Virus genome (UHGV): UHGV-0036483
Direction: 5' to 3' (one strand)
Source: a virus
DNA: 54,587 bases
Below the pieces are notes generated by a model. The model saw only the letters and a program-made list of their open reading frames with translations, was not told where the DNA came from and did no database searches. Positions 48,727 to 49,452 of the stretch are shown here, in pieces. The translations under genes and the position numbers were made by a program. How positions within the stretch are numbered: the first letter of the stretch is position 1; the number at the start of each line of letters is the position of its first letter.

Positions 48727-49452
48727 TTAACAAAATGTATAACTATTTGCACGCAAAAGTTCAGACAACCAAAGTTGACCCTTAGCAGTAAATAGTGATT
48801 GGACGTAACCTCCAGCCGAACATTTTACCACTCCATAGCCTTTGTCTACGAACCACTGTTTGAACATACGCCCGCCGCGCTTAATTCGCGTATCGTACAC
48901 GTCAACCTGTTCAAGTTTTTTGTTGAGTTGCGTAGCAGTCATACCCAAAGGTCTGGCAACCTGTGTAGCGTTGCGATACTGTTCGTTTTTTGCTATAGCA
49001 TCATAAACAGCAGCCTTTGGTTCCAATTCCTTGTTTTCCAGCGCCAGCCGTTCAGCTTCCTTCTGTGCCAATCGTTTTTGCTCAACTTCATCAGCCCATG
49101 CGCGAGCCGCCGCAACCGGGTCAGTGAAATCCGGCAATGCTGGCTGGCGTACCTGTTTTTCAAGTTCCTGCCAGCGATCAACAAGTCGTGCCGTAAATTC
49201 AGGACAGTTTTAAGCAACGACGATAATACTATCCCGCTTGCCTTGCTCGCCTTCAAAAACGTAAACATCAGAAAACCTATTAGGACTAAGTGATTGTTTA
49301 TTCTCAACTTTCGCCATTGGCGAATTTTGAATTATTCCCTTTTTAATTAGTCTGTAAATACTCCGTTTAATATCTTTGTGATCACTTCCAGTTAATTCTG
49401 CAATTTCAAGGCTATTCATCTTAACAGCATTAAAAACCATTAAATCACTCAT
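48727..49452 (-). pseudogene. Rha-family regulator (Rha-N + KilA-C/ANT-like C-terminus) interrupted by in-frame TAA at 49210..49212
   Basis: ORFs 49210..49452 and 48727..49137 are in the same frame; translation across the stop reads ...IIVVA*NCPEFTARLVDRWQELEKQ...; MNSLEIAELTG Rha signature. Confidence 0.5.

Follow-up and report, generated by a model that had tools for sequence, protein, structure and literature searches.

A premature ochre codon and a second lesion in the pRha-ANT/KilAC gene of an mEpimmI coliphage genome: a probable natural null allele

The question raised by this locus is whether two neighbouring reading frames of a phage genome are two genes or the pieces of one that has been broken. 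The window, as the whole stretch of 54,587 bp analysed here (UHGV-0036483) is called below, carries on its minus strand an ORF of 80 amino acids (49452..49210, MSDLMVFNAVKMNSLEIAELTG...IIVVA*) and a TTG-started ORF of 136 amino acids listed at 49137..48727. The first positions of the two lie 315 nt apart (49452-49137), or exactly 105 codons, so that both belong to one frame, as a first-pass annotation had recognised with the coordinates given here. Translation of 49452..48727 yields 242 codons with one internal stop (TAA, 49212-49210) and a terminal TAA, and the letters around the premature stop read IIVVA*NCPEFTARLVDRWQELE. With glutamine at codon 81 the read-through product has 241 amino acids, in agreement with the continuous protein of ~240 amino acids predicted earlier. 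It is very probable that a recent and real mutation of CAA (Gln81) to TAA has inactivated a non-essential AriS-like regulator in a temperate coliphage of the mEpimmI group. The features discussed below are collected in Table 1.

Table 1. Features of the interrupted gene, in window coordinates
Feature	Position	Strand	Remarks
Shine-Dalgarno GGAG	49461..49464	-	8 nt upstream of the ATG; anti-SD pairing -6.6 kcal/mol
Translated remnant, 80 codons + TAA	49210..49452	-	Winged-helix portion (N-terminal) of the Rha domain
Premature ochre TAA	49210..49212	-	Ancestral CAA (Gln81); coding-strand C>T transition at 49212; from DNA and protein alignments
Phage_pRha of the ancestral frame (residues 12-99), interrupted by the stop	49156..49419	-	Pfam PF09669
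Rest of the gene: end of the Rha domain, long linker helix, ANT/KilAC	48727..49209	-	Most probably untranslated now
ANT/KilAC domain (read-through residues 139-234)	48751..49038	-	Pfam PF03374
Second lesion, T4 run versus T5 in relatives	48755..48758	-	DNA comparison with mEp044 and contigs L005-L009

Domains and predicted fold of the interrupted frame

The continuity of the frame across the junction is far beyond chance, because PHROG 63 ('anti-repressor Ant') covers read-through residues 7-236 in one stretch (E 3e-52) and intact proteins of 236 amino acids align across the position of the stop, with identities of up to 96%. The anti-SD pairing ahead of the ATG compares with a regional background mean of -2.4 kcal/mol and with -9.3 kcal/mol at the start of the next gene.

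Two Pfam domains are recognised in the read-through protein. Phage_pRha (PF09669, a profile of 91 positions with a gathering threshold of 29.9 bits) matches residues 12-99 over profile positions 1-91; the score of 30.2 bits is barely above threshold, and that of the corresponding protein of phage mEp044 (mEp044_11) is 30.4 bits. The 80-amino-acid ORF taken alone stays below the same threshold (23.0 versus 29.9 bits), and its match is restricted to residues 12-41 and profile positions 1-30. ANT/KilAC (PF03374, gathering threshold 25.3 bits) matches residues 139-234, downstream of the premature stop, with 44.3 bits (E 2.4e-11), which bears out the earlier description of the C-terminal part as KilA-C/ANT-like. 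By these matches the gene product is a two-domain, AriS-like 'antirepressor' protein composed of pRha and ANT/KilAC, not a plain Rha regulator. The first-pass description of a Rha part and a KilA-C/ANT-like part in one frame, divided by one TAA, is accurate, and what needs correcting is the name of Rha-family regulator. As the Pfam Rha domain spans residues 12-99, the stop at codon 81 falls inside this domain and not between domains.

The predicted fold is that of an AlphaFold2 model of an intact homologue (P0001) that is 96% identical; its mean pLDDT is 77. In the model, residues 11-82 form a compact winged-helix unit with the order strand-helix-helix-strand-strand-helix (strand 11-13, helices 14-21 and 25-37, strands 46-50 and 60-67, helix 68-82). 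A helix at 84-102 bears the family-invariant residues D92, R93, W94, E96, L97 and E98, and is followed by a long helix (112-155) and an alpha/beta ANT domain (160-234). The invariant residues make up a DRWxELE motif that lies entirely downstream of the TAA, and the model thus predicts that the stop removes the most conserved helix of the Rha domain together with everything after it. Another homologue (P0101) joins an identical Rha module (residues 1-98, with Q81 present) to an unrelated C-terminal domain. This fusion puts the natural boundary of the module near residue 100, not 80. No significant match to a protein of solved structure is found by sequence, and the likeness to MarR-type winged helices reported by Foldseek is weak (E at least 0.065).

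Intact relatives and the genome that carries the interrupted copy

A protein search returns more than 50 clusters of homologues at an identity of at least 76%. All are 236-237 amino acids long except for one of 243, and nearly all have both Pfam domains on record. Identity to the window copy is 94-96% for homologues P0001-P0006 and 82% for mEp044_11, which is uninterrupted over 236 codons. The latter is annotated as a 'putative DNA-binding protein' (WWQ70509.1), and occupies the same slot and contains the same two Pfam domains as the window gene; 236-amino-acid homologues in E. coli prophages are annotated as 'Rha family transcriptional regulator / phage antirepressor KilAC domain-containing protein'. 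Compared with these intact genes, the window copy has TAA for CAA at codon 81 and a deletion of 1 nt near the 3' end.

The protein alignment consists of 19 homologues, 17 of which have a Rha domain of the same subtype. Glutamine stands in the column of codon 81 in 17 of these 17, including gene 11 of phage mEp044, and these proteins run on to 236 amino acids; of the options offered by the first-pass annotation, this is the pattern that favours a nonsense-mutated pseudogene. In DNA alignments codon 81 is CAA in mEp044 and in contigs L005 and L006. Both the CAA and a run of five T near the 3' end are confirmed in the DNA of four intact relatives: an E. coli prophage (GCA_009767195) and the Logan/ENA contigs L005, L007-L009 and L013. 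Among intact copies dN/dS in the C-terminal part is 0.07-0.12. By these ratios the family is under purifying selection and the uninterrupted protein is the form selection maintains, so that the intact form is the functional state.

Searches with degenerate DNA patterns gave no match to the TAA allele in the JGI metagenome, GTDB-genome and IMG/VR collections, while the CAA allele gave three, zero and two matches respectively. Complete E. coli genomes in RefSeq contain distant matches only (~73%). No homologue was found that is split at residue 80 and followed by a separate downstream gene, the arrangement that the first-pass annotation had proposed to look for among intact relatives. Two short homologues consisting of KilAC only (P0067 and P0082, 165 amino acids) were considered as a natural split and rejected as late start calls; the DNA behind them (contig L070) contains an intact Bro-N plus ANT ORF of 247 codons.

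The window is a complete, circularly closed genome of 54,587 bp, assembled from a metagenome and belonging to the mEpimmI coliphage group. Its ends join inside an intact SSB gene (54268..54587 + 1..94), giving a complete ORF with the tail ...DDDIPF, which establishes that the genome is complete and circularly closed. The closed genome is circularly permuted; it is free of host flanks, and its ends do not overlap. Among deposited phages Escherichia phage mEp044 (PP180004) is the closest. It belongs to the mEpimmI group isolated from human faeces, which is Nus-dependent and non-lambdoid (PMC11893012). By tblastn the ORFs of mEp044 are collinear along the whole window; protein identity is 85-99% for most of them and falls to as little as 37% in a few divergent genes. 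Length (~54 kb), synteny with mEp044 and core genes in common at high identity all place the window in the group. Gene order at the slot is cI, an O-like replication initiator, a Bro-N gene, the Rha-KilAC gene, an exonuclease-like gene and a DnaB helicase.

Two of the neighbouring genes have features of their own. Between the antirepressor-like gene and DnaB lies a gene for a protein of 372 amino acids (47591-48709, minus strand) with an N-terminal HTH (weak Pfam matches). On visual inspection this protein has His/Asp motifs like those of metallophosphoesterases, and its match among the PHROGs is PHROG 704 ('DNA repair exonuclease', E 4e-138). The O-like initiator gene (50464-51450, minus strand) contains at 51084-51171 approximately four copies of a repeat of 22-23 nt, arranged as two perfect units of 45 nt, which encode a duplicated SGTKQPGVVAESN peptide. 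These repeats look like iterons, and may mark a lambda-style origin inside the initiator gene.

The window derives from a short-read metagenome assembly, as the MEGAHIT-style contig name k141_9173 indicates, and one of its two lesions lies in a homopolymer. Together with the lack of the TAA allele elsewhere in the three public collections, these points could mean that the stop is a sequencing or assembly artefact, or a minority variant made consensus, the true phage having CAA and T5. The records make this quite unlikely, and the sequencing error that had been offered as an option loses most of its force. The 80- and 136-amino-acid products are recorded on contig k141_9173 of ENA assembly ERZ27287497, which is listed for three samples, as well as on a Logan contig of 6.5 kb from run ERR7738580. 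Logan uses a different assembler, and over the 4,478 nt that were compared its contig matches the window letter for letter, both lesions included. The frequency of the allele in the population and the linkage of the two lesions, which are 455 nt apart, are judged from these two assemblies, and the assemblies possibly come from the same or related data. In addition, the C>T change lies outside any homopolymer, and the rest of the genome does not resemble a low-quality assembly, having no other frame disruption in 54.6 kb.

This last point comes from a comparison of all mEp044 ORFs of at least 70 amino acids with the window by tblastn, followed by codon-level alignment. Stops were flagged by tblastn in rap, gp26, gp99, lysozyme and tail K, but each lies upstream of the real start. 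Apart from the Rha-KilAC gene, no gene shared with mEp044 is disrupted in the 54.6 kb. Genome-wide decay or poor sequence was accordingly rejected, since the flagged stops all fall where the mEp044 annotation runs spuriously too far in the 5' direction. That annotation (PHANOTATE, PP180004) seems over-extended at the 5' ends of genes 26, 44 (rap), 69 (lysozyme), 99 and 107. The conserved cores of these genes begin at internal Met codons, and the window has stops or frame changes in the extensions.

A second lesion and alternative readings of the stop codon

The TAA is not the only lesion; a second one is absent from the first-pass annotation. The window has four T at 48755-48758 where every relative compared as DNA (mEp044 and contigs L005-L009) has five, a loss of 1 nt. 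The resulting -1 frameshift replaces the family C-terminus ...SELFACK* with ...SELLRANSYTFC*, so that the frame no longer ends at the ancestral TAG (48745-48743) but at a TAA (48729-48727) just upstream of the ribosome-binding site of the next gene. The C-terminal tail of the window copy is absent from all 19 aligned homologues, the 13 closest of which end in ...SELFAC/RK.

The CAA>TAA change is likewise private to the window in a comparison of private substitutions. Further private changes are three synonymous substitutions in the N-terminal part, and one synonymous and one conservative non-synonymous substitution (V229L) in the C-terminal part. That so few private changes accompany the two lesions suggests that the damage is recent when set against the divergence of the relatives sampled. 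Against the closest relative of the C-terminal part dN/dS is 0.25, a value that comes from just 9 synonymous and 8 non-synonymous differences. It is solely the lesions that carry the call of pseudogene, the private substitutions being too few to give a signal of relaxed selection.

In this phage group the N-terminal part of the gene is subject to exchange. The gene just upstream in the window (49485-50096, minus strand) encodes a Bro-N domain and an uncharacterised C-terminal half. In phage mEp515 a Bro-N domain near-identical to the N-terminus of this upstream gene is fused directly to a KilAC part that is ~92% identical to that of the window, at the conserved linker PALPDFTDP (mEp515_13, contig L002, 2659-3402). 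The fusion looks like domain shuffling by a recombination that deleted the Rha module, and the N-terminal domain alternates in the group. An orthologous Rha-KilAC gene of a related phage, on a Logan contig of run ERR8212333 (L071, 248-957), is frameshifted near residue 50, giving ORFs of 54 and 180 amino acids. This frameshift, recorded also as homologue P0056, is independent of the window lesions, and may be real or an assembly error. A further homologue, P0113, looks damaged as well.

A rival reading is that the split is functional: the 80-amino-acid winged helix would act alone, for example as a DNA-binding competitor, reinitiation at TTG 49137 or beyond would supply the KilAC part, and the phage would retain the two activities on separate polypeptides. 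The gene caller of the source database does list both ORFs, residues 11-82 are a compact winged helix in the model of the intact homologue, and mEp515 dispenses with the Rha module by joining Bro-N straight to the same KilAC part. There is also precedent in AriS, the domains of which work separately from plasmids, KilAC alone inhibiting SOS (PMC9043618). Other observations nevertheless make a functional split unlikely. The stop takes away the Rha helix with the invariant DRWxELE motif, the split is absent from homologues and confined to one lineage, and the second protein, if made, would end in a frameshifted C-terminus. TTG 49137 (codon 106, 75 nt past the stop) is the only start candidate ahead of the ANT domain with any SD pairing, but this pairing (-3.8 kcal/mol) is within the regional background. 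An ATG does not occur before codon 171, which already lies within the ANT domain, and no promoter-like site above chance was found ahead of it. Low-level reinitiation at TTG106 giving a functional C-terminal fragment is accordingly of low probability; what speaks for it is the analogy with Listeria AriS, where KilAC is active when expressed by itself (PMC9043618).

A more specific version holds that the stop is a selected 'domain-uncoupling' allele, producing a stand-alone 80-amino-acid Rha winged helix that acts as a dominant-negative or altered-specificity DNA binder, with KilAC lost or made in a trickle by reinitiation. This is decidedly improbable. If true, prophage induction behaviour in the gut would change, and the allele would be a natural experiment separating the two AriS-like activities in a Gram-negative phage group otherwise reported to be universally KilAC-bearing.

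The frame is open on both sides of the TAA and the downstream part is still nearly unchanged, which speaks for programmed read-through or recoding of the stop to yield the full-length protein. Other properties of the genome render this extremely improbable, and the read-through codon suggested in the first-pass annotation finds no support. ARAGORN identifies no tRNA gene, suppressor or other, in the genome. Of 52 large ORFs 28 end in TAA, which makes it the genuine stop used most, and the tetranucleotide present here, TAAA, is also the most frequent one. In E. coli, UAA leaks least of the three stop codons. Finally, the stop is not conserved, as the same-subtype relatives encode Gln at this position (17/17).

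Known systems and consequences of the loss

The reading preferred here remains that of a natural null allele. Translation would begin at the usual ATG (49452) and stop at 49212-49210, and the fragment of 80 amino acids released would be without the final Rha helix, which is the most conserved one of that domain, and without the long linker helix and all of KilAC. The 480 nt past the stop would be translated to no useful extent, which would make the gene a natural knock-out, or pseudogene, and the private deletion of 1 nt near the 3' end would fit a gene that is no longer maintained. The frame is disrupted by two lesions, as against intact homologues that are under purifying selection, and this combination is expected of a pseudogene or natural null allele. 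We infer that the allele has lost its function, the phage having lost the activity of the KilAC part and making at most a crippled winged-helix fragment of 80 amino acids. The phage would stay viable because the gene is accessory.

The closest described architecture is that of AriS from Listeria phage phi10403S, in which the N-terminal domain acts on phage genes and over-expression of KilAC dampens the SOS response of the host (Azulay et al. 2022, PMC9043618). AriS-like proteins combine a variable N-terminal regulatory domain with a C-terminal KilAC (PMC9043618). This combination is found in the ancestral frame and in all homologues, whereas in the window allele the TAA separates the two domains. 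The likeness is one of architecture and of the Pfam domain in common. The hosts also differ, AriS belonging to a phage of Listeria and the window phage to a Gram-negative host, and the window copy is truncated before KilAC.

Classical phage antirepressors are P22 Ant and Ant1/Ant2 of P1 and P7, and a Rha protein is known from phi80 and P22. These have the domain families Phage_pRha and ANT/KilAC in common with the window gene. However, unlike the classical antirepressors, the window gene is not in an immI-type region, but among replication genes, in an operon of the early rightward type. The name of the best PHROG match, 'anti-repressor Ant', is the one item that may point to an antirepressor role of the P22 Ant type.

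The Rha-KilAC gene appears dispensable for propagation, given that the genome is otherwise intact and closed, that the frameshift in L071/P0056 is independent, and that P0113 looks damaged. Against free dispensability stands the result of one manual analysis, in which a KilAC-like antirepressor is a core gene in all 48 mEpimmI genomes (PMC11893012). Strong Rho-dependent polarity on the exonuclease-like and DnaB genes was considered and would not be expected, because the newly untranslated ~500 nt of mRNA are not C-rich or G-poor (C/G mostly below 1) and the mEpimmI group relies on N-type antitermination (PMC11893012).

The event is of an ordinary kind, with no new mechanism and no recoding. 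As in other ochre mutations and pseudogenes of phage accessory genes, a single transition has produced a premature stop while relatives are intact, and nothing sets the window allele apart from these. The finding matters little by itself. An annotation should join the 80- and 136-amino-acid ORFs into a single gene marked as disrupted and not report two proteins. The allele could also serve as a natural null for the question of KilAC and SOS in E. coli, as with AriS in Listeria. For the group as a whole, a pRha-KilAC gene that is counted as part of the mEpimmI core can be lost from an otherwise intact, closed genome, which suggests that it is accessory for propagation.
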